Positions 12,784-62,000 of a DNA stretch of 64,000 nt are shown in pieces. Numbering within the stretch: position 1 is the stretch's first letter; each line of letters starts with the position of its first letter. The position numbers were made by a program, and so were the translations under genes. The notes under the pieces are model-generated. The model was not told the DNA's origin, searched no databases, and saw nothing but the letters and a program-made list of their open reading frames with translations. Origin of the DNA: a virus. The DNA lies in the IMG/VR virus record IMGVR_UViG_3300013772_000003, positions 1 through 64,000 of that record, one strand, 5' to 3'.

Positions 12784-12807
12784 TTTATTGTTGGTTTTTG
12801 TTGGTTA

Positions 12808-14601
12808 CTAATCAAGGTACTCAATTTTATATCCTTTTGCCCGCAAAGCGCGGATTTCTTTCTCGCTCATATATTCCCCCTCATCATGTTGTCCACCCAT
12901 TTTCATGTTGCCCCGCGATTGTACCGGAGTATATTGATTGGGACGAAACGCTCCGCTATTACTTTCATAGTCGCCCCTATTCGCATTACCTGCTTGATTA
13001 ACTGAAAACTGGTTATCAGCATTTGTACGTTGCTTTAATAACTGTTGATTAGCAAAAGTATTCTGCGAATTTAATCCCGCTGTCAGGAAACTCATACCTC
13101 CTATAATTCCTTCCGCAGCTAATTGTCCGTTAAATCCTCGCTTCTGTCTTTGCTCGGGTTTCGCATTATTTAATTGCTGCGAAGAAACGCCGGAAGTAAT
13201 CGGATATGGATTATCTGTCTGCCCATTCATCATAGTTTGGTTTCCCGCCACTCCCGCACCTTCCGGAGTAGGTTCATTAGCGAAACTTCTTTGTTGTATC
13301 TGATTAGAAAGAAATCCAAAGGCACCTGATTGATTGTCAATTCTTAGTCCGCTGTCAGGAACGTAATCGTTATTGACTTCATTTCCTTCCCCCGCAGTCC
13401 CATCCAAATGCCCCATTCCCTGCATCCATTCTTTTGACATCACCTGTGTTCCTTGTTGTGCATACTGCTTTGGTTGCCCACCATACTTAGCCATTGCTTC
13501 TTGATGTAAACTTTGAAGGTTGTTTGCTTCCTCCATTGCAAGAGCAAAATGTGCATTGTTTGACAAGTAGCCCTTGAACGCATTGTTTCTGTTATTCAGG
13601 AAATCTTCTTGTGTTACTCCTTGAGGTGAACTTGATTTAGTTTGTCCGCCGGCTTTCATTACGTCTTTATGTGCGCTTTTGATAAGTGCTTTTAGAAACT
13701 CGCCGCCTCCTTGAAAAATATCTCCACCAAACTGATGCGTAGATGTGGGTGTGGGTGCAACTGATGCTGGCGGTGTTCCCCAAGTATCCCAATTACTTGG
13801 AGCATATTTCTTTTGAAGAGTAGCGCCATGCACCTTCTCATCATAGGGTACCATATCTTTTACAGAAGGAGCGCCTTCTGCGGGCATCTTTGTTGAATCT
13901 ATGACATATCTTTTATTTCCATAGGTAACGGGAAGGTACCCCGTAGGCTTCGCAGGCTGTTGTTCCCCGGGTTTAAGGGACTCTGCTTGATAACGAACAG
14001 TTGGTGTAGGATACCTCATTTGAGAGGTCTGACTGCCTACCCACTGATCGACCTGTACATTAGGATCTGATAATTTATGGTACTGTTGAACAGCTTTGAT
14101 AGTCTCCGGTGTTACCTTATTTTGAGGAAACTTACGTGTATAATCACTATCATTAAACTCCTTCAACATTTGGTCAGTATATGCCTGCTTTCCTTCAGGG
14201 GTGTTCATCTTTGGGTCGTTCTTCATCCCTTTGCTTTGCACAAATCCTTGGAAAGCATTCCATCCTCCGACATTAGCACCTTTAGGTATTTGGGTAGGAT
14301 CTTGATTAAAACGAACTTTCTTAGTAAGATCTACATTTGTAGTAGCTCCATATTGATTCCCTGAGTCAGCAGGAGAAGTTCCTTGTACATTCAAACCCTG
14401 TTGTGCAAACTGATAACCTCCACCATACTGAAAAAACGGATTATCGAAGTTGTTTTCATAATCTCCTTCTACAATATCTCCTCCAAACTGCAAGTGTCTT
14501 ACTTGTGGATAAGCATCGAAAAAAGAATTTTCATCAGGAAACTTCTTGTAGAATTCCTTCTCTGATTTTACTCCTGCTATACGTAAAAATTCCGCTTTCA
14601 T
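12808..14601 (-). CDS. Virion cargo protein with repeated x-x-GG motifs
   Basis: 597 aa, low-complexity Q/G/N-rich; QFGG, QYGG, QFGG, QGGG, KAGG, KYGG, KMGG. Confidence 0.6.
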   Translation of the reverse strand: MKAEFLRIAGVKSEKEFYKKFPDENSFFDAYPQVRHLQFGGDIVEGDYENNFDNPFFQYGGGYQFAQQGLNVQGTSPADSGNQYGATTNVDLTKKVRFNQDPTQIPKGANVGGWNAFQGFVQSKGMKNDPKMNTPEGKQAYTDQMLKEFNDSDYTRKFPQNKVTPETIKAVQQYHKLSDPNVQVDQWVGSQTSQMRYPTPTVRYQAESLKPGEQQPAKPTGYLPVTYGNKRYVIDSTKMPAEGAPSVKDMVPYDEKVHGATLQKKYAPSNWDTWGTPPASVAPTPTSTHQFGGDIFQGGGEFLKALIKSAHKDVMKAGGQTKSSSPQGVTQEDFLNNRNNAFKGYLSNNAHFALAMEEANNLQSLHQEAMAKYGGQPKQYAQQGTQVMSKEWMQGMGHLDGTAGEGNEVNNDYVPDSGLRIDNQSGAFGFLSNQIQQRSFANEPTPEGAGVAGNQTMMNGQTDNPYPITSGVSSQQLNNAKPEQRQKRGFNGQLAAEGIIGGMSFLTAGLNSQNTFANQQLLKQRTNADNQFSVNQAGNANRGDYESNSGAFRPNQYTPVQSRGNMKMGGQHDEGEYMSEKEIRALRAKGYKIEYLD

Positions 14602-15315
14602 CTATACTGGTATTTTAAAATTATCAAAACTTACGCAGGTGCCTTCCTCAAGTTCTTCCCGGTACTTTAGATACACTTTCAAATCTGCCTGCGCCTTAAT
14701 GTACTCAGGAAACGAAAGAGCCTCCTTAGACGGATAACCAAGTGCATATAATTCGCAACGCTCCTCTAACGCCTCCAAAGGAAAAAACTCATAATTAGCG
14801 TTTTTTATCATTACACAAGTTACTATATCTTTTTCAACTTTTCTTATAAAAAGTTCAGCGCCTCCCTTCTTACTATACCCAAGAACAAAGCCCCGGGAAG
14901 GACGCACTCTTTCAAATCGTCCCACCTCAAACAAAATTTTTATCTCCGCGCCATCTTTACCGGGAGTCTCTCCTTCTGTTAAACACTTTCTCACCAAATA
15001 TGTTCCGTGCGTTCTCTTTGTGTACTTCGCTACTACATGGTCGTAACAATGCTTTCTCATGTTTTCAAAACCCCCTTCCTGCTCTGTTTTTAAAGATTTC
15101 TCTAAAAGGAGTTGTTGTTCCCTCGTTTCCTTATAAAGTCTTTCAAAAGTTTCTTTAAGAAAATCTGTGTTCTCTATGCTCTCTATAACTCCCGCTTTTG
15201 CTTGCTCCAACGTGTGCCCTCCACCAAACATCTGAGTCCCTACTGTGAAAACAACACCGTAATAAACCCCGCCATCCTCTGCGCCTAACTTTTCTTCTGT
15301 TATTTTTACTTCCAT
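14602..15315 (-). CDS. Hypothetical protein with HicB-like N-terminal segment
   Basis: 237 aa; EDGGVYYG...GGGHTLEQAKAGVIESI resembles the HicB-type RNase H-like fold; weak. Confidence 0.45.
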   Translation of the reverse strand: MEVKITEEKLGAEDGGVYYGVVFTVGTQMFGGGHTLEQAKAGVIESIENTDFLKETFERLYKETREQQLLLEKSLKTEQEGGFENMRKHCYDHVVAKYTKRTHGTYLVRKCLTEGETPGKDGAEIKILFEVGRFERVRPSRGFVLGYSKKGGAELFIRKVEKDIVTCVMIKNANYEFFPLEALEERCELYALGYPSKEALSFPEYIKAQADLKVYLKYREELEEGTCVSFDNFKIPV

Positions 15316-15366
15316 ATTTATTTATTTTACCACTTTCTACGGGACTAATCTAAATAGGTTACAAAG

Positions 15367-17706: not shown

Positions 17707-17947
17707 CGTCAGTTTTTGGATTTGGTTTCTTCAATAATTTTGCGGAAGCCCAGAGGTCGCAACAAAAATTTTCGTCAGGATAAGGTAGTTTATTATTCCC
17801 TCCCTGCCATTTCACAAATTCTTTATTCTTACATGTCTTATGATCCGTACCTAAGAACGAACAATTTTTACACATGCTGCCACCGTAAGGTACTTGAAGT
17901 CCTAATTTGTGTGATGCTGGGTATTTGAAATCGTGACCTCCGTACAT
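17693..17947 (-). CDS. Small Cys-rich protein (CxxC...C...CC; possible Fe-S/Zn binding)
   Basis: 84 aa; MCKNCSFL...TC...FCCDLW. Confidence 0.55.
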   Translation of the reverse strand: MYGGHDFKYPASHKLGLQVPYGGSMCKNCSFLGTDHKTCKNKEFVKWQGGNNKLPYPDENFCCDLWASAKLLKKPNPKTDDENQ

Positions 17948-18177
17948 TACTCTATTTTTTCAAAACTACGTTTACCTTTCATTACTAATTCCTCAGACTC
18001 ATTCGTATCCAAATGGTTTAAATAAATGACATCCAAGTAATACTCCGTAGCAACAGCTACTACCTTAGAAGAAGCATTAACATAAGTTTCTAAAACAAAC
18101 CCTTTCCCTAACTCTCCGTCACTTCTATTATAAAAATAGATTTCCGGATATTTGCCTTGAAATCGTGCAGTATTCAT
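17947..18177 (-). CDS. Hypothetical protein
   Basis: 76 aa; own TACATTTG promoter (18202-18209) and AACCAAC motif. Confidence 0.65.
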   Translation of the reverse strand: MNTARFQGKYPEIYFYNRSDGELGKGFVLETYVNASSKVVAVATEYYLDVIYLNHLDTNESEELVMKGKRSFEKIE

Positions 18178-18214
18178 CTTATTTTTATTTGTTGGTTTCT
18201 ACAAATGTAGTAAA

Positions 18215-21200
18215 TTATCTTGGAGATTGTTGTAGTTTTTGATCAGCCAAAATCAACAGGATTTTAACCTTACCAACAATATCCTTACGTAACCACACAG
18301 AGTTCTGATAATTTCTGAATCTTTTGTGCTCCGTAGGCGATTTTGCATAATCAAGATTAGCGTTGTTCAAAGCACGCACATACCCATTTGGGCTCGTATT
18401 CCAAATCATACGCCTTGCATTAGAAAATTCCCCACGATCAGACGTTAGATCGACCATTTGGTTGAAACGATATTTGTTCTCTACCTTGCTATACAAAATA
18501 TCAACACTACCTGCATTGTATTGAGGAAACGAAAGCTCTTTCCAAGGATCATTGTGAATGATCGGATTGAATTTAAGCATACCACTGCACTGCTCCGGAT
18601 TCCATATCACGGCTTTATCAAAAAAGTATTCCAACATTAAATATCTGTCATGGCAATTCCCTGCATCATACAGATAGTTCTCCATCTGTAATTCAATGCT
18701 ACGCAGCACATTCACTTGCTGTCCCGTATTAACTCGAAACTCAACCTCAAAAGGATAGTCAACTCCAAAATAATTACAATAAGAATCACATAAAATATTA
18801 TGAACATACAATCCCCCGGCGCCCAAACTGTCCGTCTGTGTGGTAAGGAACGTGTTCTTACCCTGCATCGTTAACTCCGGTTTCCAGTCGTGAAATGAAA
18901 TCCATTCCTTAGTCTTCGGATCGTAGCTTGCGGTGAAGCTCGCATCCTCAAAGTACGTAGGATCACCAAGCTTTATAGGAAGAACTCCTCCCACCTTGAA
19001 ATCATTCCTACCCGTATATTGAATTGAATTTGGCACCATAGAAGCACTTGTCACTACTACAAAACCATCTTTTAGTTTGTAATCCTTCTTCATAAAATAC
19101 ACCAAAGTATTTTGCTGATCAAAGGTAGATTGTGTTCCTACACCTATAACCGGATTATCTGTTAACTCAAAATCAGGAAATGATTGTGTCAGCATACAAG
19201 GAAGGTACTGAGCAAACCACCAATTCAAGTCTGTTCCTGATATTTCGGACATTCCCGCGCCCAACTGGTATTGAAATATATTACCGGTGCTTTGAGAAAT
19301 CCAGTACACACCCATAGGCGTATTAATCACAGACAATCTACCTTGACAAGATGCTGTTTCAAAGGACTTCTCTGCGTTTACCAAACTCTGCAACGGACGC
19401 GAGAACAACGCTCCTGTACCGATGGTGATTTCTGTATTTCCCATCTGCAAATTTTCTATGCTAACCATCTGCAACGGAGATTGATTCCCAAAGAAAAACA
19501 AGGCTCCTGTCTTATTGATTGCTTTTATATCTGTTACCGGCGTTATAAAATCATGGTAATTATTCGCTAAAAATATTAACCACGCATCCTTAATTGATTC
19601 CGATGATTGTTGATTTATAGCAGCAAAAGGTAAAGAAAATAAAACACGATTCTTATAGTGTACAAAACAAGATTCGTAAATAATAGGATCGTAGTTTATT
19701 GGTTGAATATTTGCCCAACTGATAAACGATGGAAATAATTTTGAAATGCTTAAACTGTAATCGTATTTGAAATAATTTCCTGCCTTAATAATGTCAGGAT
19801 TCATATCAAACATTGCTTTCTCGTCGGTATAACGATATGGATCGTAGTAACGCTGATTAATATTATCACCCCAATCTCTTAACTCTGTATTTACATCGGA
19901 CTCTACGAAAAAGTCACGAACCCCTGAGTTGGACAAATACATGTACGCATCCTTTACTCCGAAAAAACCAGATAATCCTCCTCTATCAAAAGCGTGCAAA
20001 CTTTGAGGCAAAAGATTAGTCCAAGAGCCTGTGGTAAATGCGGTTCCTAAACCAGAAATAACCTCAGCAATATCCCACTTATGCGTATCCATCCAATACA
20101 TAGGACGCGGCACATACTCCTTTAAACGATAATCAAATTCATATCCGTTAGGCTGTCCGTACATCCAATCGTAAAAGAAAAACATTGTGTTCTTCTCTGT
20201 GTAACGGGATACATACGTATCGCCACCAAATAGGACAGGGCTTACCACAGGAAACTTCCCTGCTGTACTAATAGTGCAAGAGCCTATTGGTATTTGATGT
20301 ACGCCGCCGATTTGTCCATATTGATTTTGAAGACGATTTTTAAGAGCCGTATAAGAACAGATGCTGAATGTGTTGAGAGGAATCAAAGGGTCCTGATGAG
20401 TAGGTCCAAGTCCTGTAGCTGTGTGTAAAGTTTGTTTTGTGTTATCTCCTGCCAAAAGACTTAACCCTACTGCTGTTTGTAAAGCAACAGATTTACCTCT
20501 GAATAAGTTATTAACCCTATACCCCGTACCTAAATCCTGCAATTGATCTTCAAGGTAGATTTCGTCAGAGATTGTTCTGCGAGTTTCTCCCAAGGAAGTG
20601 TTTGCAAACCCATCATAAAAACAATGAGACATATATTGTAGGGCATGTTGCTCCCAATTCAAAAAAGCTCTAATTAGATCAAGCGTTGTGTCCGTTCCTT
20701 GAGACCAGTAATTCACAAAAGCGGGAATTCCATTCAACATTCTTAAGAACGTAGGCACATTATCCCCGTCATCCTCTGTGGTTTGTTTTCCGTACCCGGT
20801 TGTTGACGGGACAATGTTGGTTGCATTAGCTAATCCTGCCAAGGCAAGATTCCACGCCTCTCTTCCCAATCCCGTTAAGGCAGTTATACCCGCTTGTGCT
20901 CCTCCAGTGAATCCTGTATCGACTCCACCCTCAGCCAAATCTGCTGCGGCGACTGCGGCGTCTCCCGTAGCAATAGCTGCAATTGTAGTAGGGACGGGAA
21001 CTAAATTATCCAAACCCCACGCTCCAGCTCCCGCAGGACCAACAAAAATACCAGACTCAACGGTTCCAATCCTTGTCGGATAAATTCTGGTTGTAGTACG
21101 CTGTCCAAGCGAGGAAATCATTGCAATACCTACCCCGGCGATTACCGCAGAAACAAAAGCTAAATCTGTAACAAACTTATGTCTTGGGTGCAGGTGAGGT

Positions 21201-23326
21201 TCAACAAAGGCTCCCGAAGCTGTCCCTACTAAATGCCCATACACCTTCAACTCCTTCATAGATAAATAAGGATTTCTGAATTGCGTGTCAGGAGAATGGA
21301 AAGTAAAAACATTATCCCTCACTGCGCTGTTGGGAGGGTACGTGACTGTGTTTACAACTCCTGTTCCAACCGACTCCGCTGTTTCTGTCAGAGAAGAAGT
21401 AATAAAATAATCAGCGCCTACATCATTGTATGGGTAGTTTGGATAAAGTCCGTTTCGTGTAGTAGAACCTCCCGGAATAACATACTCAAACATATTATTT
21501 ATGATCCCCTTCGCTACAATCGTTTTGTTTCCCTCGCGACTTCCCCTTAAAATACGGTATCCCACAATACCCGGAACCGGTGTTAACCCGTCATTTAAAA
21601 GTGGTTTTTTTATGTTCTCGTATTTTGTACCTAAAATTCTTATTGCAGGCTTACCCCCAAAATTAGGGCTGCTGTTGGTATAGTGCTGAACTGATGTATC
21701 TGACGGTGTTCCCCACAATCTCTGTTCAGGAAACTTGTGGTGTCTGATTGGTTTACCGCATAAATCATAATCTGTCGCGCTCGTTCCCGGGTACGGAGGA
21801 GTAAAGGCACCAAACGTACTTGCATTATATACTAATGGTTTGTCATCAGGATAAAACTCGGTGGATTCATGGTATCCCATCAAACCTTCTGATAATAAAA
21901 ACCCTTCTCCGTCAGGTGACGGTGTGTTTGGAGGATATGTAAAAGTCAACTGCGCCGTGTTATAAACCTCGAAAACTTTTTCAGAACTCAAAGGATCTAA
22001 CCAATCGGTAGTCCCACCAACTGCGTTTTCCACCAACCCAATTAATGTACCAGAAGTAATGGGTATAACAGGTCTACCGGGAATATGATAGGAAGAACTT
22101 AAGTCTCCGTCATCATATATCCACTGAATAAACTCGCAATAATTTTCATCACGCAAACGACTCGTAGCACTTCCTCCTTTACGATAGTAGTCCGCAGGAA
22201 ACTCTGTGCTTACCCACTTGGTCACAATTTGATTAGCAAGAGGTTGATAGTTGAAATCAAATTTGTTTGTTGGACTTGTACGTAATAAATAATTTCCTAC
22301 TTCATAGATTGCATCAGACTTATCTGCTATTGGGTTATGTAATGGTATCCAAGCTAACGGAACAGTTGTAAGTGTTGGGTCAATAATGTCAATTGAAATT
22401 CTTTTCTGACGCGTGCTGTATGTACCAAATGATTTAGCCTCTGTTTGCTGATTTACAACACTCACTACAACGAGTTCAAACTCATCGAAGCGGTCATCCA
22501 TACTGTCAATAATAACATCAATAGAGCCGGCTACATTCGAATGATCGAATAAAGGTTGTACGTTGGACGGAGCAAAATAATCAGTAACACGTTGTCCGTT
22601 TACTTTATAAGCCGCGATTACAAAATAAGAACCGTTAAAAAGACTTCCGCCTCCTGAACCTTTAACTACATGTAGACACGGGGCATTAACTAATTTTGCA
22701 AGGCGAATCGCATCAGTATCAACAACAAATCCTGTGTATTGTACTGGCGCAAGCGCAACGTAGTTTACACAAGTAATACAACCAACAGGGTAAAAAGGAG
22801 AGCTTGGAGGTTGTGTACCTAACTGAGTATTTCCTGAGGAATCAGTGCACAATTGTACGAACTGAGGTTTGTCCACATTCAGTGTACGATCCGGATTATT
22901 CCCATCCGCCCAATAGATATGCCAAGAGCAATCGAAGTTTTCTTTTGATACCCCTATAATTAAATTTGCACGATTAAAGTTTAAGAGAGGAAAGCCTGCG
23001 GGGTAATATGAATCATTCGCGATTGTTGTGTACGTCTCAGTACCTTCAACAAATCTTCCTATTTCTGAATTAACATCGTTAGTAGAAAATACTATCCAAT
23101 TATCTGCAAATAAATAAATGAATCCAACGATTGTGTATGGAGCTTTGATGCACTCTTTGTTGCTGGGTTCTGACGAAATATCAAATATGTCGCCGGTCGG
23201 AGACCAGTTGGTAGCATTGCGTGCAAAAGTCCATTGCGAAGACTTCGAGTGGAAGTCCTTTACGTCGGTATTGAGACCTCTGTCGAAGGAATCTGTCTTG
23301 TTATTATTTGGGTCTTGTTGTGCCAC
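18215..23326 (-). CDS. Tail muzzle / tail stabilization protein
   Basis: 1703 aa; FDRGLNTD N-terminus, IYWADGNNP, RDENY, FGGDTY and WISFHDW motifs characteristic of the crAss-like muzzle; follows ring proteins. Confidence 0.85.
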   Translation of the reverse strand: MAQQDPNNNKTDSFDRGLNTDVKDFHSKSSQWTFARNATNWSPTGDIFDISSEPSNKECIKAPYTIVGFIYLFADNWIVFSTNDVNSEIGRFVEGTETYTTIANDSYYPAGFPLLNFNRANLIIGVSKENFDCSWHIYWADGNNPDRTLNVDKPQFVQLCTDSSGNTQLGTQPPSSPFYPVGCITCVNYVALAPVQYTGFVVDTDAIRLAKLVNAPCLHVVKGSGGGSLFNGSYFVIAAYKVNGQRVTDYFAPSNVQPLFDHSNVAGSIDVIIDSMDDRFDEFELVVVSVVNQQTEAKSFGTYSTRQKRISIDIIDPTLTTVPLAWIPLHNPIADKSDAIYEVGNYLLRTSPTNKFDFNYQPLANQIVTKWVSTEFPADYYRKGGSATSRLRDENYCEFIQWIYDDGDLSSSYHIPGRPVIPITSGTLIGLVENAVGGTTDWLDPLSSEKVFEVYNTAQLTFTYPPNTPSPDGEGFLLSEGLMGYHESTEFYPDDKPLVYNASTFGAFTPPYPGTSATDYDLCGKPIRHHKFPEQRLWGTPSDTSVQHYTNSSPNFGGKPAIRILGTKYENIKKPLLNDGLTPVPGIVGYRILRGSREGNKTIVAKGIINNMFEYVIPGGSTTRNGLYPNYPYNDVGADYFITSSLTETAESVGTGVVNTVTYPPNSAVRDNVFTFHSPDTQFRNPYLSMKELKVYGHLVGTASGAFVEPHLHPRHKFVTDLAFVSAVIAGVGIAMISSLGQRTTTRIYPTRIGTVESGIFVGPAGAGAWGLDNLVPVPTTIAAIATGDAAVAAADLAEGGVDTGFTGGAQAGITALTGLGREAWNLALAGLANATNIVPSTTGYGKQTTEDDGDNVPTFLRMLNGIPAFVNYWSQGTDTTLDLIRAFLNWEQHALQYMSHCFYDGFANTSLGETRRTISDEIYLEDQLQDLGTGYRVNNLFRGKSVALQTAVGLSLLAGDNTKQTLHTATGLGPTHQDPLIPLNTFSICSYTALKNRLQNQYGQIGGVHQIPIGSCTISTAGKFPVVSPVLFGGDTYVSRYTEKNTMFFFYDWMYGQPNGYEFDYRLKEYVPRPMYWMDTHKWDIAEVISGLGTAFTTGSWTNLLPQSLHAFDRGGLSGFFGVKDAYMYLSNSGVRDFFVESDVNTELRDWGDNINQRYYDPYRYTDEKAMFDMNPDIIKAGNYFKYDYSLSISKLFPSFISWANIQPINYDPIIYESCFVHYKNRVLFSLPFAAINQQSSESIKDAWLIFLANNYHDFITPVTDIKAINKTGALFFFGNQSPLQMVSIENLQMGNTEITIGTGALFSRPLQSLVNAEKSFETASCQGRLSVINTPMGVYWISQSTGNIFQYQLGAGMSEISGTDLNWWFAQYLPCMLTQSFPDFELTDNPVIGVGTQSTFDQQNTLVYFMKKDYKLKDGFVVVTSASMVPNSIQYTGRNDFKVGGVLPIKLGDPTYFEDASFTASYDPKTKEWISFHDWKPELTMQGKNTFLTTQTDSLGAGGLYVHNILCDSYCNYFGVDYPFEVEFRVNTGQQVNVLRSIELQMENYLYDAGNCHDRYLMLEYFFDKAVIWNPEQCSGMLKFNPIIHNDPWKELSFPQYNAGSVDILYSKVENKYRFNQMVDLTSDRGEFSNARRMIWNTSPNGYVRALNNANLDYAKSPTEHKRFRNYQNSVWLRKDIVGKVKILLILADQKLQQSPR

Positions 23327-23331
23327 ACGAA

Positions 23332-24429
23332 TTATCTACTAAGTGATGCACCCGAAGCTGCGGAATAATCAAAACCGTTATAACTCGAAAACATGGAGTA
23401 ATATTTGTTCCATTGTGCCTTCCTGTTTACAACGTACATCTCATTCATCTCCGTCCAGTTAGGTGTGCGCACAATTGCTTTTGCAGCCCCCTGAGCAATC
23501 TTTCTCTTCTCAGTGAAGTAATGCAACTTCTGTACCATATCCTCCCCCTGCATCATTAGATTTTCACAAATTCTTTCCTTAAGGGCATATTGGTGAAATT
23601 CCGAAATAACTTCGTGATCAGGAACCAATAAATTTCCCTCTTCGTCCTCAAGCATTCCTTCGTATGAGAGATAGACTTGTCCGCAACCATTGTTATGATG
23701 CCAGTTGGTGTACAACCACCCATCTTTAATCCACGCTTCATCTGCGGATCGCATATACAAACCCGGACAGCCGCACTCTATGCCTTGAGCATTGTTTATA
23801 AAACGTAATGGGTGCAGGTGGTTATAAGTCCTTGTGCCGGTACTTACCTTTTGTATTACTTCTACACAATCCCCTTTACAGTTCAGGAAGACTCTTGGTT
23901 TTTTCCACCAGTCCCCACCCGGTTCTTTTGGATTGAAAACAGCTTCCTCACAAACATTTGTTGGAGCACATGAACACGGAGTTGCTCCGCATCCACAAGA
24001 AGGAGTTGCTGTCTGCAACACGGCTGTACCACATCCACAGGGAACCAAATGACAGTTAGAACACACTACCGGAGCAGCACAAAGATTAACAGAAGCAGGT
24101 ACAGACCGCACTTTAGGAATCAATTTCTCTTCAAGATGGGTTCCCTGCGGCACTACAAAAGTTTCTGTATGACTTCCGCACATCATTGCAAAATTCACAG
24201 TATAAAAGTCTTCTGGAAGTCTAACTCTCCCCTTCTCCAAATCAAGTAGAGTTTCTTTAGTTTTATAGATACGCAGTCCTAATATATAATTACACCTGCG
24301 AGCAACACGTATCAAAGACGCAGGATCAATAAGGTTCTCCAAGGCATACGCAGAAAAGTCAATACGTACGTCACTTAGAAGTTGGTCAAACGTCTGGTAC
24401 TTTAAAGTATAGTTAGAAATTCCTGACAT
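23332..24429 (-). CDS. Tail ring / tubular protein with Cys-rich insertion
   Basis: 365 aa; RVRLPEDFY and DEEGNLLVPD motifs; immediately upstream of muzzle. Confidence 0.75.
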   Translation of the reverse strand: MSGISNYTLKYQTFDQLLSDVRIDFSAYALENLIDPASLIRVARRCNYILGLRIYKTKETLLDLEKGRVRLPEDFYTVNFAMMCGSHTETFVVPQGTHLEEKLIPKVRSVPASVNLCAAPVVCSNCHLVPCGCGTAVLQTATPSCGCGATPCSCAPTNVCEEAVFNPKEPGGDWWKKPRVFLNCKGDCVEVIQKVSTGTRTYNHLHPLRFINNAQGIECGCPGLYMRSADEAWIKDGWLYTNWHHNNGCGQVYLSYEGMLEDEEGNLLVPDHEVISEFHQYALKERICENLMMQGEDMVQKLHYFTEKRKIAQGAAKAIVRTPNWTEMNEMYVVNRKAQWNKYYSMFSSYNGFDYSAASGASLSR

Positions 24430-24433
24430 CTGA

Positions 24434-25105
24434 TTACTGTTTAAGTGCAGAAATATTATCTGCTGCTGGTTCTTTCGGTATCTGAATTGTTCCTAATAAA
24501 TCATTCTTCACATTCTGCTCAATCTCTGCAAATAAATATTCCGGTATATGCGTCTCCTCATCCTGTGCTAACTTGCAAGGATCGCCACAACACAGATATT
24601 GTTCTACGCTGTTTTCAGGAAGTACTTCCATCTTCGCCGCGTCCCACTCAATATCCGGAAAATAAACCTTCTTATCTATAAACCAGTAGTAATGATTTTG
24701 GTTGTATTTGTAAGTAGAGGAGTTAGCAATGTCCACAAACGTTGCAGGATTTGTTTTAATGCAAATAATGGAGCCATCAATTGAAGTAATAGAACGAAAC
24801 AGCGGACCATACGTTCCTTCAAAAATATCAGGCAAGTCCTCCTTAGTTCTTTTGATAGTACATCCTGATTTGATTCCACCGCAACACGCAGCTACTTTGT
24901 CGACCTCTTCAAGCTCTACACAAGGAAGTGTTACAAACAGACTCTGAAATTTCATTATCTTGTTCTGATCATCAAGTCGCTTCAAATATAGTTTAGCATA
25001 CTTTATAGCAAGAGAATATAAGAAACGGTCTGTCAGGAAAGCATCTTGTTTCGCCGCCTTCACGATGTTTCTCATTCTTGATATGGTATCTCTTCTTCGC
25101 TGCAT
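24434..25105 (-). CDS. Tail ring protein
   Basis: 223 aa; TLPCVELEEVD...C...KRT..DLP, YYW..D..VYFP; crAss-like synteny. Confidence 0.75.
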   Translation of the reverse strand: MQRRRDTISRMRNIVKAAKQDAFLTDRFLYSLAIKYAKLYLKRLDDQNKIMKFQSLFVTLPCVELEEVDKVAACCGGIKSGCTIKRTKEDLPDIFEGTYGPLFRSITSIDGSIICIKTNPATFVDIANSSTYKYNQNHYYWFIDKKVYFPDIEWDAAKMEVLPENSVEQYLCCGDPCKLAQDEETHIPEYLFAEIEQNVKNDLLGTIQIPKEPAADNISALKQ

Positions 25106-25743
25106 TAAATTATACCGTCAAATTCATTGTAAGTTAATAACAATTCCGCAGCCTGCTTCATTGCAAATTCTTTTTTATAAAACTTATCTTTACGCCAACG
25201 CATAGCTAAATCTTTTTTAGCAGGGGAGAAGTAGGTACGGTTTGCATCAAACATTTTTCCTATTATTCGCAGGTGCTTTTTGAATACTTTGAACTCCCAC
25301 AAATACTTATTAGGCATGTCATAACTATCAGAACTAATGTCCAAAGATACCAAAGGAAAAATTCCCCCTCCTGTGTTCACTCTATTATGAACAACAACTC
25401 CTAACCTCGCAGAAGCAACATCAGCTATCCGTTTTCTTTTACCTTTTTTTACAGTCACAACCTGCAATTTACCCATACGATTGGGTAATGTTACTCCTGC
25501 ACGACTATCAATAGCTGCTTGCATCATGTTTTCATTAAATGCTTGCAAAATGGAAGTAAGCTCTGCGTCTTTTAATTTACATTCTTTGTGTTCAGCGCGA
25601 AATTGTTTATGTGCAAACGTAGGCGCCTTCCAGTTATTCCTATCATCCAATACTCCAATCTTGTTCTTCCTGACTCCTTTCACAGAGTCCGTAAATTTAG
25701 GCGCTTTCGGATGTGCGGGCGTATATGGAGTAAACTCATTCAT
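25105..25743 (-). CDS. IHF/HU-like DNA-binding protein
   Basis: 212 aa, basic; helix + GVTLPNRMGKLQVV arm; conserved position upstream of ring proteins in crAss-like phages. Confidence 0.65.
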   Translation of the reverse strand: MNEFTPYTPAHPKAPKFTDSVKGVRKNKIGVLDDRNNWKAPTFAHKQFRAEHKECKLKDAELTSILQAFNENMMQAAIDSRAGVTLPNRMGKLQVVTVKKGKRKRIADVASARLGVVVHNRVNTGGGIFPLVSLDISSDSYDMPNKYLWEFKVFKKHLRIIGKMFDANRTYFSPAKKDLAMRWRKDKFYKKEFAMKQAAELLLTYNEFDGII

Positions 25744-25755
25744 ATTTTTCTCTTC

Positions 25756-25835
25756 TTAAACAAAACCCCCGAGCAAAACGCTCAGGGCTCTGCTATTAAC
25801 TCAAAAGCAAAACCAACAGATGCTCGAGCAATATT
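25756..25835 (-). ncRNA. Candidate antisense sRNA 'B': hairpin with CUGUUGGUUU loop followed by intrinsic terminator
   Basis: UAUUG-CUC-GAGCA[UCUGUUGGUUU]UGCUU-UU-GAG-U-UAAUA, then CCCUGAGC[GUUUU]GCUCGGGG-GUUUUGUUU; loop complementary to AAACCAACA upstream of many genes. Confidence 0.65.
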
Positions 25836-27059
25836 TTAATAACAAGCACCATTAAAAGTCACTGTTCCGGTTGCTCCTTCTGACTCAGCCCTCACCACCG
25901 ACCCCGTAACAGCACAAACTGTTGTACTTGACGGCGATCCGTAGGAAAACAACTGTACCGTAGTCACAGCTCCGTTACAAGCAGTGTACCTAAAGGTCAC
26001 CTTTCCTTCAACATCCCCTTCTGTAGAGGTCAAAGTAGTGCTCTGACAATTGCATAAACAATTTCCTGTGTCTTGAGCTATTGTATAATCTGAGGGTGCC
26101 GGGGGAACACCTGCTGTACAAAAATCAACAGTTTTTCCCGGTTGTAACAAACTTACGGGATTCCCCACACTTCCTCCTGCGGGATACCCTTGCCCTGTAC
26201 AACTGGTAACTACGAAGGCAGAACAAGTCCCCAAAACAGCAGTTGCTGTCGCAGTAGTTCCTGACGCTGGAGGAACAACTGTTACTAAAGGGGCTGTGGT
26301 ATATCCTGTACCCGCATTATCAAGTATAATTTCAATCACGGTTCCATAGTCAGCTACAACATTAAAGGTAGCATCCGTAGTGTTTCCCCCCATAAAAGCG
26401 GGATCAGGTTTTAGAGTGTCTCCCGTATTATATCCAACACCCTGAGCAGTTATAGTCCCCAAAACCACGGCACCTGTATTATCAACAGTAAACGTACCTT
26501 GACCTCCGGAACCTGAACCAGAAATAACTAAAAGAGGCACCTCCGTGAATGTTTGCGATACGTTCCCATTATAGCCGGAACCATTGCTTGTAAAGGTAAT
26601 GCCTGTTGTTAAAATAAATCCTGTACCTACCACGCCATGCGCAAGCGCTGTTACCCCCGAAGGAGGTGCTGCTACCATTACGGTGGGATTTGTTCCTACT
26701 GTATACCCACTACCTTCGTTGTCAACTGTAATAGAAGCTAACGCAACACTGTTACAAGTAGCTAAATACCTTTTGCAGGAAGGAGATGGTACAAACGGTG
26801 TGCTAAAATAAACACGCCCGTCAGTAGAACTTACGTCTTCACAACAAGCTTGAGCATACCCGTCAAATTCAACTGTAGGGCAGCTTTCGTTGTCTAAACA
26901 AGGAATGGCTATAGGCACAGAACAAAGTGTGCCGCCGCCGAGACAAGTTGTGTCAACACAGGTATATCCCCCTGAATTATTCAGTCGATAGCAAACTCTG
27001 TGGCAGCCTGTATAGTCTGTCTTAAAAGTTACGGTTATTGTTGCTGGTACACACGCCAT
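25836..27059 (-). CDS. Cys/Gly/Thr-rich structural protein with repeated G(S/T/V)GY beta-modules
   Basis: Likely start ATG 27059 (MACVPAT), not 27134; EGSGYT, NGSGYN, QGVGYN, AGTGYT repeats. Confidence 0.65.
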   Translation of the reverse strand: MACVPATITVTFKTDYTGCHRVCYRLNNSGGYTCVDTTCLGGGTLCSVPIAIPCLDNESCPTVEFDGYAQACCEDVSSTDGRVYFSTPFVPSPSCKRYLATCNSVALASITVDNEGSGYTVGTNPTVMVAAPPSGVTALAHGVVGTGFILTTGITFTSNGSGYNGNVSQTFTEVPLLVISGSGSGGQGTFTVDNTGAVVLGTITAQGVGYNTGDTLKPDPAFMGGNTTDATFNVVADYGTVIEIILDNAGTGYTTAPLVTVVPPASGTTATATAVLGTCSAFVVTSCTGQGYPAGGSVGNPVSLLQPGKTVDFCTAGVPPAPSDYTIAQDTGNCLCNCQSTTLTSTEGDVEGKVTFRYTACNGAVTTVQLFSYGSPSSTTVCAVTGSVVRAESEGATGTVTFNGACY

Positions 27060-27079
27060 TGGTTGTTGTTTTAAATAAT

Positions 27080-27634
27080 TTATACTGCTAAAGTTGTTAC
27101 TAAAATTGTTAATGATGTACAGGAGGTTCCACAAATAGACTTTACCTGAATGTAGTAAGAAGTGCTTGGAAGCAATCCGCCAATTAAATCAGAAGGATTT
27201 GCTGTCTGCGCTATTACTGGATTAAGAAGCCATGTACTTGATGTAGTTGCTCTGTACTCTACTTGGTATCCACCGGTCGCCACAAGAACAGGAAGCCATT
27301 TCAAAGCAACGGTTGTTGAAGTAATGTTTGTACTCTGTACTCCCAGTACACTTTGACAAGGTGATGTTGGATAAGCACATCCCGGGTTTGTAGCAAGAAG
27401 AGCGAACAACTGAATAATACTATCCAAACGTTGTCCTTTCATTATACCTAAATCCGCAATAGTATCTCCGGTATAAACAACACAGCCTGCACTGAATGTT
27501 TCAGGACAAGGGTCCCCGTTTGGACACAAAGGCGCTGTACAAGGCATACAAGTAAGCAGGGGCAAATCTTTGCATCCGCAGTCCACTGCACAACCGCACT
27601 TCTTCTTATTTATTGGCGAACACCCACATCCCAT
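27080..27634 (-). CDS. Cys-rich structural protein with C-terminal FN3 domain
   Basis: 184 aa; TNITSTTVALKW...YQVEYR...GLLPSTSYYIQVKSIC. Confidence 0.7.
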   Translation of the reverse strand: MGCGCSPINKKKCGCAVDCGCKDLPLLTCMPCTAPLCPNGDPCPETFSAGCVVYTGDTIADLGIMKGQRLDSIIQLFALLATNPGCAYPTSPCQSVLGVQSTNITSTTVALKWLPVLVATGGYQVEYRATTSSTWLLNPVIAQTANPSDLIGGLLPSTSYYIQVKSICGTSCTSLTILVTTLAV

Positions 27635-27646
27635 AATTTCTATTAT

Positions 27647-29149: not shown

Positions 29150-29170
29150 TTGTGGAGTATTGTTGCAAAG

Positions 29171-31301: not shown

Positions 31302-31496
31302 TTATCCGTAGTTATGTTGATAGGTTATTGATTGAATTTGTATTCCTACTGGAAAACTATTTACAGGAGATTGTACCGTGTTTTGTTGTATTACGCTTCC
31401 TTGTACGCACGCGGGACAAACCTTCACCCCTGATGAGTTAAGCCCCCATCCGCAGGGGCACCCCTTCTCTAAATTACAGCCACTGCAAATTGCCAT
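31302..31496 (-). CDS. Small Cys-rich protein
   Basis: 64 aa; CSGC...GCPCG...CPAC. Confidence 0.7.
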   Translation of the reverse strand: MAICSGCNLEKGCPCGWGLNSSGVKVCPACVQGSVIQQNTVQSPVNSFPVGIQIQSITYQHNYG

Positions 31497-31528
31497 TGTA
31501 TGTTGATTTTTGTTGGTTTAATTTTATT

Positions 31529-35179: not shown

Positions 35180-35209
35180 TTTGTTTTTGTTTTTATTTGT
35201 TGGTTTAAA

Positions 35210-36235: not shown

Positions 36236-36257
36236 ATTGTTGGTTATTTGTTGGTTT

Positions 36258-37318: not shown

Positions 37319-37370
37319 CTATTATAGTTTTATAATGACGTTGGTTTTTTAAATTTTTTATACTTCTTTT

Positions 37371-41475: not shown

Positions 41476-41491
41476 GTTGGTTTAGTTGGTT
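41476..41491 (-). promoter_or_regulatory. AACCAAC translation-initiation-region motif, tandem pair (representative)
   Basis: Also at 12790, 12800, 18191, 31512, 35199, 36239, 36250, 37340, 51300, 53810, 57120, 61666. Confidence 0.8.
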
Positions 41492-50711: not shown

Positions 50712-51060
50712 GTCTGATTATTTTATACTTCAACAAGATATTCCCAGATGTCTGTATTCCCAACTCAGGATTCAGGGATATTCTCTTTTTTCCCGCACCC
50801 TCTTTTATACATAATTTACTTTTCTCGATCCGTGACAAACAGTTGTTTACTGCGGAAGGGCTTCCCATCACCTTCAATTCAGATGCCAACGCGCAGAACT
50901 CAGTCAAACGCATCTTTCCTCGGCAACCCAAAAGCGCCAAACACTCCAGTTCCGTCGCATTTAAAACAACCTTATGTAAAAAGCAATACACAACGATTTG
51001 TAGCTTTACAATATCATTCAAATCATGACGGATGGTTTTATCTACCTGATTAAATACCAC
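50650..51060 (-). CDS. Winged-helix DNA-binding protein
   Basis: 136 aa; LNATELECLALL...SPSAVNNCLSRIEKSKL...ISLNP. Confidence 0.6.
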   Translation of the reverse strand: MVFNQVDKTIRHDLNDIVKLQIVVYCFLHKVVLNATELECLALLGCRGKMRLTEFCALASELKVMGSPSAVNNCLSRIEKSKLCIKEGAGKKRISLNPELGIQTSGNILLKYKIIRLEADALDKNSKTDSRATVAA

Positions 51061-51296
51061 TACGCTGGTTTCTTAGGATTATCCGCAGGTTCTTCTTTTT
51101 GGGAAGATTCGAACTCCGCCATTTTAGCTTTCACTAATTTGCGGTTCAAAATGTGAGAGTCAATTTTAAATTGTAACGCCACTAACTCCTCCTGCTTACG
51201 AAGCAAAGGAAGTTGCGCATCGCAAAACGCATCAAGGTTCTTAGCGTATTCGTCTAAAGTGTCTTTTGTTGGTTGTTGTTCTATTATTTCTGACAT
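51060..51296 (-). CDS. Small coiled-coil protein
   Basis: Likely start ATG 51296 preceded by AACCAACTCC; promoter TATTTTTG at 51315-51322. Confidence 0.65.
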   Translation of the reverse strand: MSEIIEQQPTKDTLDEYAKNLDAFCDAQLPLLRKQEELVALQFKIDSHILNRKLVKAKMAEFESSQKEEPADNPKKPA

Positions 51297-51384
51297 GGAG
51301 TTGGTTTTATGTCCCAAAAATAATAAACAATGTGTTATTGTTAGAAAAAAGTTTTTAACAACGTGTTTTTATGCAGAAAATAAA

Positions 51385-53529: not shown

Positions 53530-53808
53530 TTATTCTTGTTTTTCACAGGCATCCAAAGTCTCCAACATCTGAGCCTTTGCCGCAATAGTTAAAGTGGAAT
53601 GTTCATTTATAAACTCCACCAAATTTTTTAAATCCGATTTGTCCAGCGTTACCTCTTTATTATCGTAAAAAGACTGTGCCCATCCGAAAAATTTAAGAGC
53701 GTCACCCTTTGCAGCGTTAGCTAATTGTTCTGCAAGAACTTTTCCCATAGGAGCTATAGGTGTTTTATCCAAGCCTAAAATGTCTTTGTTTAAATTTATC
53801 TTTATCAT
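53530..53808 (-). CDS. Putative tail-fibre assembly chaperone
   Basis: 92 aa helical; EVTLDKSDLKNL resembles QIDLEENEYDLL of 56765-57115. Confidence 0.45.
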   Translation of the reverse strand: MIKINLNKDILGLDKTPIAPMGKVLAEQLANAAKGDALKFFGWAQSFYDNKEVTLDKSDLKNLVEFINEHSTLTIAAKAQMLETLDACEKQE

Positions 53809-53830
53809 AGTTGGTTTTTTACAAATATAA

Positions 53831-56764: not shown

Positions 56765-57115
56765 TTATTTCTTCAATACCGAGTCCAAGTAACTCATAAA
56801 CTCAAATGCTTCTTTGGATGTAGAGTTGATGATAACATTTTCCTCAACACATTTTTTCAGGAGATCGTACTCGTTCTCCTCCAAATCAATCTGACCTGAA
56901 GCATTTTTTAGTTTGTCTATAAGTTCTAACCGTTTTCCTAACTCAGAAGTACCTGCCTTATTCCAGCCTCCGGACGGAGCAGACTCTGCCGCAAGAACAA
57001 ATAAACTAAAATAAGAAGTGGTGTCGGAAGCTTGTTCTGCCTGCGTAATAGATCCTTTGTCCCAAATGATTTTTTTGTTTGGAAAAATAATTTCTTTGTC
57101 TACAATGTTTCTCAT
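56765..57115 (-). CDS. Putative tail-fibre assembly chaperone
   Basis: 116 aa helical, in fibre cassette. Confidence 0.45.
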   Translation of the reverse strand: MRNIVDKEIIFPNKKIIWDKGSITQAEQASDTTSYFSLFVLAAESAPSGGWNKAGTSELGKRLELIDKLKNASGQIDLEENEYDLLKKCVEENVIINSTSKEAFEFMSYLDSVLKK

Positions 57116-57124
57116 ACTTGTTGG

Positions 57125-57364
57125 TTATATATTGGGATAATGAGCTGTTATGTATGCCTGTGCAGCAGCTTGCAATTTTGTATCAATCTCAACTTGTGAA
57201 TCAGTTTTTAAAAAGTTGAAGGTGCTTAACTGTTTAGAATAAAAGTCAGAATAAGCATTTCCAACTATATTCGAAATTACCACTATCTGCCAATCGCGAC
57301 TTACTCCATCTTTGTTGTCTACAGGAGCACCAACTACATTTGCATCTTTTAATTCGTAGGTCAT
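57125..57364 (-). CDS. Tail-fibre partner protein
   Basis: 79 aa; DNKDG...QAAAQAYITAHYPN. Confidence 0.65.
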   Translation of the reverse strand: MTYELKDANVVGAPVDNKDGVSRDWQIVVISNIVGNAYSDFYSKQLSTFNFLKTDSQVEIDTKLQAAAQAYITAHYPNI

Positions 57365-59843: not shown

Positions 59844-59951
59844 GCATGTTCTTTTTTGATAACATATTATGGTAACTCATAAGGTTATGTGCTTAGTTAT
59901 AATTTTTTATATATTAATAGCAGTAGTATACGCACCATACAGCACAGAGAG

Positions 59952-60587: not shown

Positions 60588-60618
60588 ACCTAATACCAGA
60601 ATAACTACCACTTGCCGG

Positions 60619-60795: not shown

Positions 60796-60952
60796 ACCTT
60801 TTGTTTTTAGTGAACATTAAAGGTATCTTAAGCACAAAGAGGTTGGTGGTAAAATTCGATGAAATGGGAGTTTTTATAGCCAAATAAAGCAAATAAAAAG
60901 TAGAAATATCTACTTCCTGAAAAAAACACAGGATCAGCTTGGAAAGAGCCGG

Positions 60953-61339
60953 TTACTTGCGCAAAATTCTGTCATAAAACAACGAGAACACTACATTCCA
61001 CAAGCAACCTGATACACAGAACATAAGTACAAAACAGTACCAAGGAAGTTCTATTGTCGCAGTGTGGGCGATGTATCCTACTAAGGCAATCGTTGCACAA
61101 AGACAAACAATCATAATACTTTTGAAGCAATGCCATGCATCTGTGAAGGCTACAGGAATACTCCGTTGCGGTTTAGTAGGATCGCTGTCTACATATTTAT
61201 TCTTCCAACTAATACTTGGGTCCCAAAAAGTAGCGTTCTTATTCCAGAAAACAGAAGTAGTGTAATGATGTACCAAAGTGTCCATAACAGCATTGGATGC
61301 GGCAGCAATCATAAATAGGAGTATTGAAAGTATGATCAT
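60953..61339 (-). CDS. Membrane protein
   Basis: Three TM helices; AVMD...FWDP..SWKNKY...FTDAWH.FK motif. Confidence 0.75.
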   Translation of the reverse strand: MIILSILLFMIAAASNAVMDTLVHHYTTSVFWNKNATFWDPSISWKNKYVDSDPTKPQRSIPVAFTDAWHCFKSIMIVCLCATIALVGYIAHTATIELPWYCFVLMFCVSGCLWNVVFSLFYDRILRK

Positions 61340-61596
61340 CTTGTCCGCCCGGCTTTATCATCCTGATAATTCTGATACGTCTTGAATAGGTTTACCCAAA
61401 ACATCAGGTTAAGTATTCCGGTGAGTACCCAAAACGAAGTTAACTCCATCGCGCCGGAGTGCACCTGCACTATTCCTGTTATCTGAGAGATTATATAAAA
61501 CAGGTAAATAAATATTTCTACTACTGTGTAAGGGGCGCCTTTTCCAAGTATCCATTGGATAAACGTTTTTTTATTTGCGTTGTCGATTGGTTCCAT
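61336..61596 (-). CDS. Two-TM membrane protein
   Basis: ATG 61596 (MEPIDN) after TACCTTTG at 61601-61608; alternative start 61665. Confidence 0.65.
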   Translation of the reverse strand: MEPIDNANKKTFIQWILGKGAPYTVVEIFIYLFYIISQITGIVQVHSGAMELTSFWVLTGILNLMFWVNLFKTYQNYQDDKAGRTR

Positions 61597-62000
61597 ATTG
61601 CAAAGGTAGGAAAATATTGTACAGCAAAAAGCCGGTACTATTATTCCCGAATCAAAAAATCCCATGTTGGTTATGTGTTGGTATAAGGCAAAGATAGAAA
61701 AATTTTTTTATATAATTTTTTTTGGTACTTTAAAACCTATGTACAGGGTCGTGTTTAGCTTGTACCCCCCTACTCACCGGCACCCCAAACCAAATGGGCA
61801 CCCTACCCCCACCTCTTAAATAAACTCAATCCTATAGTATAGGGAATTATCCAAAGAGACTCCTTTTCTTGTCCAGAGAATATTCTTTATTTGAATAGCT
61901 TGTTCTCTTCTTATGATATGTTATCTACTTCAGGATATTCTTTGTTGTTCTTATCCTTGCCTCGCTCCTTGATTGTATATTAGTGATTACCCCGCGTTTA

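Follow-up and report, generated by a model that had tools for sequence, protein, structure and literature searches.

The window analyzed here is a stretch of 64,000 nucleotides, positions 1 to 64,000 of the virus record IMGVR_UViG_3300013772_000003. On its minus strand, which bears the genes, the heptamer AACCAAC stands shortly before a number of start codons. Fourteen such sites lie 0–21 nt 5′ of an ATG and belong to 11 genes, whose ORFs encode between 40 and 436 aa. Three of the 11 genes carry the word as a tandem pair, with copies 9–11 nt apart. The first-pass annotation had given these 14 positions, about 11 genes and three tandem pairs, and all 14 positions as well as both counts are correct. 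The sites are the following.

12790..12806, minus strand: tandem AACCAAC, 6 and 16 nt before the ATG of 12340–12783 (147 aa)
18191..18197, minus strand: AACCAAC, 13 nt before the ATG of 17947–18177 (76 aa)
31512..31518, minus strand: AACCAAC, 15 nt before the ATG of 31302–31496 (64 aa, Cys-rich)
35199..35205, minus strand: AACCAAC, 19 nt before the ATG of a 40-aa ORF starting at 35179
36239..36256, minus strand: tandem AACCAAC, 3 and 14 nt before the ATG of 35210–36235 (341 aa)
37340..37346, minus strand: AACCAAC, 21 nt before the ATG of 36302–37318 (338 aa)
41476..41491, minus strand: tandem AACCAAC, 6 and 15 nt before the ATG of 40159–41469 (436 aa)
51300..51306, minus strand: AACCAAC, 3 nt before the ATG of 51060–51296 (78 aa), with a −7-type box upstream
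53810..53816, minus strand: AACCAAC, 1 nt before the ATG of 53530–53808 (92 aa)
57120..57126, minus strand: AACCAAC, 4 nt before the ATG of 56765–57115 (116 aa)
61666..61672, minus strand: AACCAAC, abutting the ATG of 61336–61665 (109 aa)

Four of the tagged genes (51060–51296, 53530–53808, 56765–57115 and 61336–61665) lie outside the structural module. Searches of the tagged genes against PHROGs, Pfam and PDB sequences returned nothing above the cut-offs, and AlphaFold models of two conserved target proteins (pLDDT 82.8 and 68.1) had no Foldseek match in the PDB at E ≤ 0.001. Gene 40159–41469 lies between the portal and the major capsid genes and its predicted model is all-helical. Position and model are only consistent with the label “scaffold” that this gene had received earlier, and the labels “gene-75-like” and “chaperone-like” for other members of the set were not confirmed. 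In one of the related phages (G001), a small Cys-rich ORF is tagged as well, there with a tandem AACCAAC pair.

The heptamer is found on 5′-proximal and internal cistrons alike. The tandem pair at 12790..12806 fills a 24-nt intercistronic gap into which a promoter cannot fit, and the site at 57120 directly joins the stop codon of the gene before it, in an intergenic gap of 9 nt. Because neither gap has room for a promoter, the signal acts on RNA there. Other copies follow promoter-like boxes: the 18191 site lies 5 nt 3′ of a −7-type box (TAnnTTTG), the 53810 site lies 6 nt 3′ of a TATATTTG box, and 11 nt upstream of the 61666 site there is a TACCAAC variant, which is 3′ of a TATCTTTG box. The tandem pair at 36239..36256 lies directly 3′ of a terminator-like T-run. 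TAnnTTTG is an enriched leader word in its own right. Since it lies upstream of only 4 of the 11 tagged genes, and AACCAAC also occurs in promoter-less gaps, we rejected a sigma-A type promoter (−33/−7 TAnnTTTG) as the identity of the heptamer.

How much of this could be due to base composition? GTTGGTT occurs 31 times on the two strands of the window, compared to 11.9 ± 3.2 times in shuffled sequences, none of which reached 31. Of these copies, 21 read AACCAAC on the minus strand. We also analyzed the 35-nt leaders of 91 crude gene calls in the whole virus record (74,772 bases). These leaders contain 16 copies of AACCAAC in front of 13 genes, all 13 in the sense and none in the antisense orientation, whereas 2000 dinucleotide shuffles of each leader yield 1.25 ± 1.1 copies (maximum 6). 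Among the 35 heptamers that consist of four As and three Cs, AACCAAC ranks first (13 genes). The heptamers at ranks two and three overlap with it as shifted readings of one longer motif, and no unrelated permutation occurs in more than four genes. The leader signal is real, sense-only and goes beyond composition. Hence, the earlier suggestion that an exact heptamer exceeds the usual A/C-rich leader of Bacteroidota holds against shuffled leaders, and so does, on comparison, the claim that the AACCAAC genes are largely distinct from the ACTCCAC genes.

Leaders in Bacteroidia are Kozak-like and A-rich, and initiation proceeds without Shine-Dalgarno (SD) pairing (PMC6847099, PMC7797042). The AACCAAC leaders share this character: they lack an SD sequence, are A-rich and unstructured, and typically have an A at about −3, −6 and −12. 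Unlike the positional and degenerate signal of Bacteroidia, the phage signal is an exact word, and this word is no more frequent than chance predicts in the leaders examined from the candidate host lineage. In a 400-kb contig from a Chitinophagaceae metagenome-assembled genome (MAG) it precedes 1 of 363 genes, with 1.26 expected; the equal frequency in host leaders that would have spoken for a host signal was not observed. In four Bacteroidota MAGs the motif occurs at background genome-wide density only. GUUGGUU does not occur in the 16S rRNA of the Chitinophagaceae MAG, a candidate lineage that may not be the host, and the tail of this rRNA has the usual ending CCUCCUUU. We therefore rejected both a generic A/C-rich Bacteroidota leader (given the host leaders, the first rank among 35 heptamers and 16 copies vs. 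1.25) and an SD-like pairing with 16S rRNA, which has no complement in the candidate lineage. Phage contigs have been binned into many unrelated MAGs, hence the MAG evidence is a weak pointer to Bacteroidota.

The motif is conserved in related phages. Our comparison set consists of 80 related loci with 1200 leaders, and the capsid proteins are 62–65% identical. A single-sequence query with a conserved 223-aa protein retrieved 5 loci and an alignment query retrieved 80; queries with the gene upstream of the hairpin described below and with a protein of the Leptolyngbya phage Lbo-JY46 retrieved none. A megablast search with 20 kb of the window found no match among cultured phages, and the capsid protein of the nearest cultured phage is 29% identical. 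AACCAAC occurs in 144 of the 1200 leaders, with a sense to antisense ratio of 144 to 2. The most enriched leader word in these loci is AAACCAACA (123 copies vs. 1.1 expected), and the consensus of the extended motif is AAACCAACAA.

Conservation is specific to certain genes. Orthologs of the scaffold-like gene 40159–41469 are tagged in 66 of 80 relatives (median distance to the ATG 4 nt) and orthologs of 35210–36235 in 54 of 64, in the latter case usually 3′ of a strong intrinsic terminator. The capsid (0 of 80), portal (0 of 80) and terminase (0 of 73) genes are never preceded by AACCAAC in the related loci. The distance between motif and ATG peaks at 3–6 nt and extends up to 26 nt (0–21 nt in the window), and tandem copies are spaced 13 to 16 nt apart. 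The exact heptamer is missing before 14 of the 80 scaffold-like orthologs and before 10 of the 64 orthologs of the other gene. Some of the variants, for example AACCAAA, would mismatch the loop of the hairpin, whereas the GACCAAC of several relatives keeps the pairing through a G-U wobble. The relatives also share a multi-block promoter-like motif 5′ of the scaffold-like gene, with AACCAAC downstream of it, beside the ATG. A conserved motif in this place resembles the middle and late promoters of crAss-like phages, which are read by the host RNA polymerase and for which a location upstream of a scaffold-like gene has been reported (10.1101/2020.03.07.982082). AACCAAC differs from such promoters in that it lies downstream, next to the ATG, and is also found where no promoter exists.

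A complement of the heptamer lies in a structured element at the 3′ end of gene 25836–27059:

25794..25833, minus strand: hairpin directly 3′ of the stop codon of gene 25836–27059, the candidate small-RNA seed
25756..25793, minus strand: intrinsic terminator, a G+C-rich hairpin followed by a U-run, which would end the candidate small RNA

The 11-nt loop of the first hairpin, UCUGUUGGUUU (25810–25820, minus strand), contains GUUGGUU, and the complement of this loop, AACCAAC, is the top enriched leader word in both the window genome and the relatives. At all 14 sites in the window, loop and leader can form 8–10 contiguous pairs. Composition accounts for part of this complementarity, since the loop is U/G-rich and the leaders are A/C-rich. 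In three near-whole relatives (29–33% G+C), the same hairpin occurs in a syntenic place, 5′ of the gene for the conserved 223-aa protein. A covariance model, which matches the window at 25748–25832 (minus strand), recovers the element from 80 of another 81 loci, each time on the gene-bearing strand and with one clear match per locus (at least 30.9 bits; the locus L173 scores 27.8). The element is conserved across the related contigs that we examined, which range from 29 to 40% G+C. Nearly all loops that could be read contain UUGUUGGUU, the complement of the leader consensus, so that loop and consensus are exactly complementary over 9–11 nt. Rfam 15 has no family that matches any part of the window at its gathering score; the element itself scores 17 bits at best (E 7). 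A look-up of public RNA runs listed none for positions 21001–31000 of the window.

The structure of the element covaries. In an alignment of 48 sequences, 90.7% of the stem cells are paired, compared to 19–36% when the partner strand is slid. There are 37 cells with double changes compared to 9.7 in shuffled alignments, and none of 500 shuffles reaches the observed covariation. All 6 pairs show double changes, and the terminator helix has compensatory changes as well. The loop is more conserved than the remainder of the element: GUUGGU is invariant in the alignment and also present in 24 further loops, conservation of the Us on either side is 90% or higher, and it is the stems and the terminator that vary. 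Since the seed core is invariant, covariation between seed and target is not available as evidence. Four relatives have GUUGGUA loops and leaders that stay AACCAAC. When we traced relatives with AACCAAA leaders, the loop was standard in one (G010) and the record of the other ended before the syntenic place; none of the traced relatives combined a changed leader with a loop changed to match. The nearest cultured phage, Lbo-JY46, has a similar hairpin with the loop UUUGUUGGUUG and a terminator in a 410-nt intergenic region (about 91579–91643 of PP438436.1). This phage and some distant members have such a hairpin, yet few or no tagged leaders.

We think that the heptamer is probably the target of a conserved phage small RNA that masks the site where ribosomes load. 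The small RNA would consist of the hairpin and the intrinsic terminator (25756–25833, minus strand), located at the 3′ end of the transcript of a structural gene. In its apical loop it would display (U)UUGUUGGUUU and bind AACCAAC, in the extended form AAACCAACAA, on phage mRNAs. With 8–10 Watson-Crick pairs, the duplex would cover about −2 to −28 of the tagged mRNAs. Because this stretch is the unstructured, A-rich zone in which the 30S subunit loads in a host without SD pairing, translational repression is the most likely outcome. Repression may set in once late transcripts accumulate and would concern a defined set of phage genes, among them the scaffold-like gene, several small genes and the one that lies downstream of capsid. 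Control would be stronger where sites are in tandem. We infer that the hairpin accumulates as an RNA, pairs in the cell and acts in this direction.

Judging target sites by duplex energy did not work. When the 92 initiation regions were ranked by their predicted duplex with the loop, 44 were at or below −9 kcal/mol compared to a mean of 28 for shuffled loops. The ranking does not discriminate because G-U pairing is promiscuous, hence we used contiguous complementarity instead. Another pair of this kind occurs in the window: the counterpart of the ACUCCAC leaders is a hairpin at 62752–62832 (plus strand), which is linked to a terminator and complementary to the leader of the capsid gene over 7 + 10 nt.

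One could also argue that AACCAAC is a stand-alone initiation element, bound with high affinity by the SD-independent ribosome of the host (through bS1 or another contact on the platform) or by an RNA-binding protein of phage or host, and that the hairpin is unrelated or a secondary modulator at most. We consider this unlikely. A tight spacing of 3–6 nt to the ATG in the relatives would suit such an element, as would the As retained at about −3, −6 and −12, which are preferred in Flavobacterium johnsoniae (PMC6847099), but leaders of the candidate host do not use the word (1 of 363) and the 16S rRNA that we checked has no complement to it. Similarly, a location on 5′-proximal and internal cistrons alike speaks for this reading, yet the most expressed genes, capsid and portal, are untagged (0 of 80 each). 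Some hairpin-bearing phages are almost devoid of tagged leaders, another point in its favor. It gives, however, no account of the exact 9–11 nt complement in the near-invariant loop of a covarying, syntenic hairpin.

We give little credence to the idea that a phage repressor or activator binds the word as double-stranded DNA, with the hairpin as one more, inverted copy. Leader and hairpin copies are indeed the same word on DNA, but the leader copies are strictly sense (144 to 2) and the inverted copy always lies within a covarying stem followed by a terminator, which argues for selection on RNA structure. Tandem copies in the window are 9–11 bp apart, about one helical turn; this helical phase is lost in the relatives (13–16 nt). 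Several copies lie just 3′ of −7-type boxes, where a roadblock would act, but those in the 9- and 24-nt gaps are far from promoters. A role of the heptamer in a promoter, or as the initial transcribed sequence of genes of one temporal class, is hardly credible. Four sites in the window, and several more among the relatives, do begin 5–9 nt after TAnnTTTG, near the expected transcript start, but with the motif 0–6 nt from the ATG transcription would start inside the gene, the intercistronic copies lack any box, and in the relatives the distance to the box (IQR 14–20 nt, SD 4.2) is more variable than that to the ATG (IQR 3–5 nt, SD 3.0), if only modestly.

A phage small RNA that pairs with AACCAAC leaders would resemble several known regulators. 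CpxQ and SroC are bacterial base-pairing small RNAs that derive from 3′ UTRs or are linked to terminators. Bacteroides small RNAs such as GibS pair with translation initiation regions without Hfq (PMC7366714). Like these, the candidate combines a seed hairpin with an intrinsic terminator, in its case right after a stop codon, and the seed is complementary to the start-codon regions of several mRNAs and is kept while the stems drift. Unlike these, it comes from the genome of a lytic-type phage, is predicted to target genes of that same phage and has no Rfam family. The c4 RNA of P1 and P7 and the CI RNA of P4 are phage-encoded, and their loops pair with short repeated sites in mRNA leaders, thereby blocking ribosome access or elongation. 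The candidate has the exposed loop and the short repeated leader targets in common with them, but c4 and CI RNA serve immunity in one operon of temperate phages, whereas here 11 or more genes are scattered over 50 kb. The logic is also that of RegA from T4, a protein that reads a short sequence where many phage mRNAs have their start codons and lowers the translation of these mRNAs during infection: one phage factor, one short start-codon word and many mRNAs. In contrast to RegA, we propose that the recognizer is an RNA loop.

Most of what is known about post-transcriptional control in lytic phages concerns a small number of proteins, alongside operon-specific antisense RNAs of temperate coliphages, and our literature search on crAss-like and Bacteroidota phages found nothing comparable. 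Our data suggest that the synthesis of certain phage proteins is controlled by the phage itself through pairing between RNAs. If so, this explains the exact leader word common to unrelated phage genes. The pairing would also offer a sequence-defined and mutable handle on how translation of SD-less mRNAs is initiated and regulated. In addition, Bacteroidota and their phages could be engineered with a compact orthogonal regulator that consists of a loop and a tag of 11 nt each. Trans-acting partners of phage leader words could then be found by simple complement searches.

It may well be that a large uncultured clade of phages, distant kin of crAss-like phages and probably infecting Bacteroidota, possesses a dedicated small RNA with a near-invariant loop, which reads a phage-specific address tag where ribosomes load on selected phage mRNAs. 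In the phage of the window this regulon would have been enlarged to 11 or more genes, and an apparent second, independent loop–heptamer pair (GUGGAGU with ACUCCAC) would serve capsid and portal. If true, translation in these phages would be switched by an RNA, which would play the part that RegA has in T4, but in hosts with neither SD pairing nor Hfq.

The heptamer AACCAAC, read as GTTGGTT on the plus strand, occurs 31 times in the window with both strands counted, where shuffles give 11.9 ± 3.2, and 21 of the 31 occurrences have the gene-strand AACCAAC orientation. The 14 copies that the first-pass annotation had placed just upstream of genes all have the right coordinates, and each lies 0-21 nt upstream of the ATG of one of 11 ORFs, which are 40-436 aa long. 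Its suggestion that an exact heptamer is more than A/C-rich leaders would normally show also holds. Across the whole record, 13 genes have the word in their 35-nt leaders, with 16 copies in all; dinucleotide shuffles of each leader give 1.25 ± 1.1 (n=2000, none with more than six copies), which rules out an equal frequency in shuffled leaders. AACCAAC ranks first among the 35 heptamers made of four A and three C, with only its own overlapping shifts near it, and its reverse complement is absent from leaders throughout the record. An unbiased scan yields three leader words for this phage: AACCAAC, ACTCCAC and, in the plus-strand block past 62 kb, CATCACA. Apart from these three, the promoter box is enriched as a word of its own.

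The window covers the first 64 kb of an IMG/VR virus record of 74,772 bases that is about 62% complete, and the minus strand holds nearly all genes between 1 and 59 kb. Three of them were identified with PHROGs:

44940-47183, terminase large subunit
42114-44888, portal
38480-40114, major head protein

By capsid protein, the nearest cultured phage is Leptolyngbya phage Lbo-JY46, at only 29% identity, and identity to gut crAss-like phages is about 25%. Because these identities are low, the phage is, judged by sequence, a distant relative of the crAss-like phages, from a lineage with no cultured member. The unbiased word scan shows an enrichment of TAnnTTTG boxes upstream of its genes and no Shine-Dalgarno (SD) sequences, which together point to a Bacteroidota host. 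The MAG binning of related contigs is weakly consistent with such a host. Contigs of the clade (L180-L198) were binned into MAGs labelled Micavibrio, Clostridium, Rickettsiales, Campylobacteraceae, Patescibacteria and others as well as Bacteroidota; a 120-kb contig in one "Rickettsiales" MAG appears to be a whole phage genome.

AACCAAC does not look like a host-type leader. In four Bacteroidota MAGs, AAACCAACAA occurs 27-47 times per 2.3-3.7 Mb versus 20-34 times for a reversed control word, and several of the matches in one MAG fall on a mis-binned phage contig. In 400 kb of a Chitinophagaceae MAG, which is only a candidate and may not be the phage's host, AACCAAC stands in 1 of 363 leaders with 1.26 expected; an equal frequency in host leaders did not occur. 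The enriched leader words of this MAG are -7 boxes, its 16S rRNA has the usual 3' tail, and GUUGGUU is absent from that rRNA.

In 80 related loci (non-independent samples with capsid proteins 62-65% identical and mostly 29-33% G+C), AACCAAC is found in 144 of 1200 leaders, ACTCCAC and CATCACA in none. The strongest leader word in these relatives is AAACCAACA (123 times vs 1.1 expected). Tagged orthologs are those of the scaffold-like gene 40159-41469 (66/80) and of gene 35210-36235 (54/64); the capsid (0/80), portal (0/80) and terminase (0/73) genes are never tagged. Before the scaffold-like gene, a conserved promoter-like motif comes first and AACCAAC stands downstream of it, with a median distance of 4 nt to the ATG. 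Before orthologs of 35210-36235 it comes after a strong intrinsic terminator, and often there are two copies in tandem, 13-16 nt apart. Between phages this divergent, an exact word would not be expected to survive in intergenic DNA free of constraint. Some orthologous leaders read AACCAAA, a mismatch to the standard loop described below, and the number of tagged sites differs between phages, from 1-2 in certain distant members through about 7 in G001, a complete relative, to 14 in the window.

In most of the relatives (L002-L081), a multi-block promoter-like motif, TTTAAATTT .. CAAGTTTA .. TTTGTATATTA, is conserved some 30-70 nt ahead of the scaffold-like gene. It may correspond in this clade to the middle/late promoter of crAss-like phages; the copy in the window is degenerate. 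In relatives the capsid gene is followed directly by the ortholog of 35210-36235. In the window, an endonuclease gene (37470-38420, minus strand; phrog_4645, E 2e-42) separates the capsid gene from the structural genes that come next; homologs at this place occur in just 2 of 80 relatives, so it looks like a mobile insertion. For two relatives, G002 (97 kb) and G003 (90 kb), a crude ORF caller gave 75 and 68 genes under table 11, a per-kb density far below that in the window or in G001. Stop-codon reassignment in part of these genomes is one possible cause, the ORF caller itself another.

Folding of the minus strand revealed a possible partner for the heptamer:

25744-25838 (minus strand), containing a hairpin with the 11-nt loop UCUGUUGGUUU and then a terminator, the hairpin immediately following the stop codon of gene 25836-27059

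In three near-whole relatives an equivalent hairpin and terminator occupy the syntenic position, which is upstream of a conserved gene of 223 aa. An alignment query with this gene gave 80 more loci, and of the 81 loci in the combined set, 55 have an exact GTTGGTT where it would be expected. With a covariance model derived from 48 distinct copies, 80 of 81 loci show a single clear match (at least 30.9 bits; 27.8 in L173), always on the gene strand, and about 1.2 kb further upstream where an extra gene is inserted. The window and each of the three near-whole relatives are matched once. Stems vary by lineage and compensate: 90.7% of cells are paired vs 19-36% with the partner column slid, and double-change cells number 37 vs 9.7 in shuffles. 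GUUGGU is invariant across the 48-sequence alignment and in 24 further loops read, the flanking Us nearly so. Complementarity between the conserved loop, UUUGUUGGUUU, and the leader consensus, AAACCAACAAA, is exact. In four relatives the loop reads GUUGGUA, and their leaders still have AACCAAC. Rfam holds no family corresponding to the element, and a literature search on crAss-like and Bacteroidota phages found nothing like it.

In most relatives a short conserved single-stranded linker, CUGACAGG or CUAACAAC (about 25794-25800 in the window), joins hairpin and terminator, and may serve for protein binding or processing. In Lbo-JY46, which has essentially no tagged leaders, a similar hairpin lies near a gene homologous to the 223-aa one (27% identity, E 1e-18). 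That hairpin (loop UUUGUUGGUUG) and a terminator occupy a 410-nt gap (locus L222, PP438436.1 76000-125312; 15579-15644, minus strand). The recorded host of Lbo-JY46 is a cyanobacterium, and many of its genes have Bacteroidota-type TAnnTTTG boxes and SD-less, A-rich leaders.

A second pair is suggested by the ACTCCAC word:

29152, 32742, 34155, 40117, 44892, 58867, ACTCCAC leaders of six genes, capsid and portal among them, with the word 0-6 nt upstream of the ATG
34249-34959, seventh gene, with the variant leader ACTCCAT
62752-62832 (plus strand), hairpin and terminator in the plus-strand block, carrying GUGGAGU and then a 10-nt stretch

Complementarity between this hairpin and the capsid-gene leader extends over 7+10 nt, which makes the hairpin a candidate partner of the ACTCCAC set. 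CATCACA(A), often after TTAAAACC, precedes 5-7 small plus-strand genes (62541-64000 in the window and to 74772 in the record).

AACCAAC might instead be a stand-alone landing site for the ribosome or a protein, a promoter-proximal element or a DNA-binding site. Because AACCAAC in the window also fills intercistronic gaps of 24 and 9 nt, its context argues that it must act on RNA. All three alternatives leave unexplained why a covarying hairpin should have a complementary loop that is nearly invariant. Most simply, AACCAAC would be the target site of the GUUGGUU-loop hairpin RNA. Loop and leader would pair over 8-10 bases at about -2 to -28, masking the stretch where an SD-independent 30S subunit must land (for background see PMC6847099, PMC7797042). 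Because of this masking we infer that pairing would repress. The hairpin RNA would rise late, since it lies at the 3' end of a structural-gene transcript. Among the tagged genes are members of the structural module as well as small genes from the 51-62 kb region, a set that would fit late shut-down or stoichiometry control.
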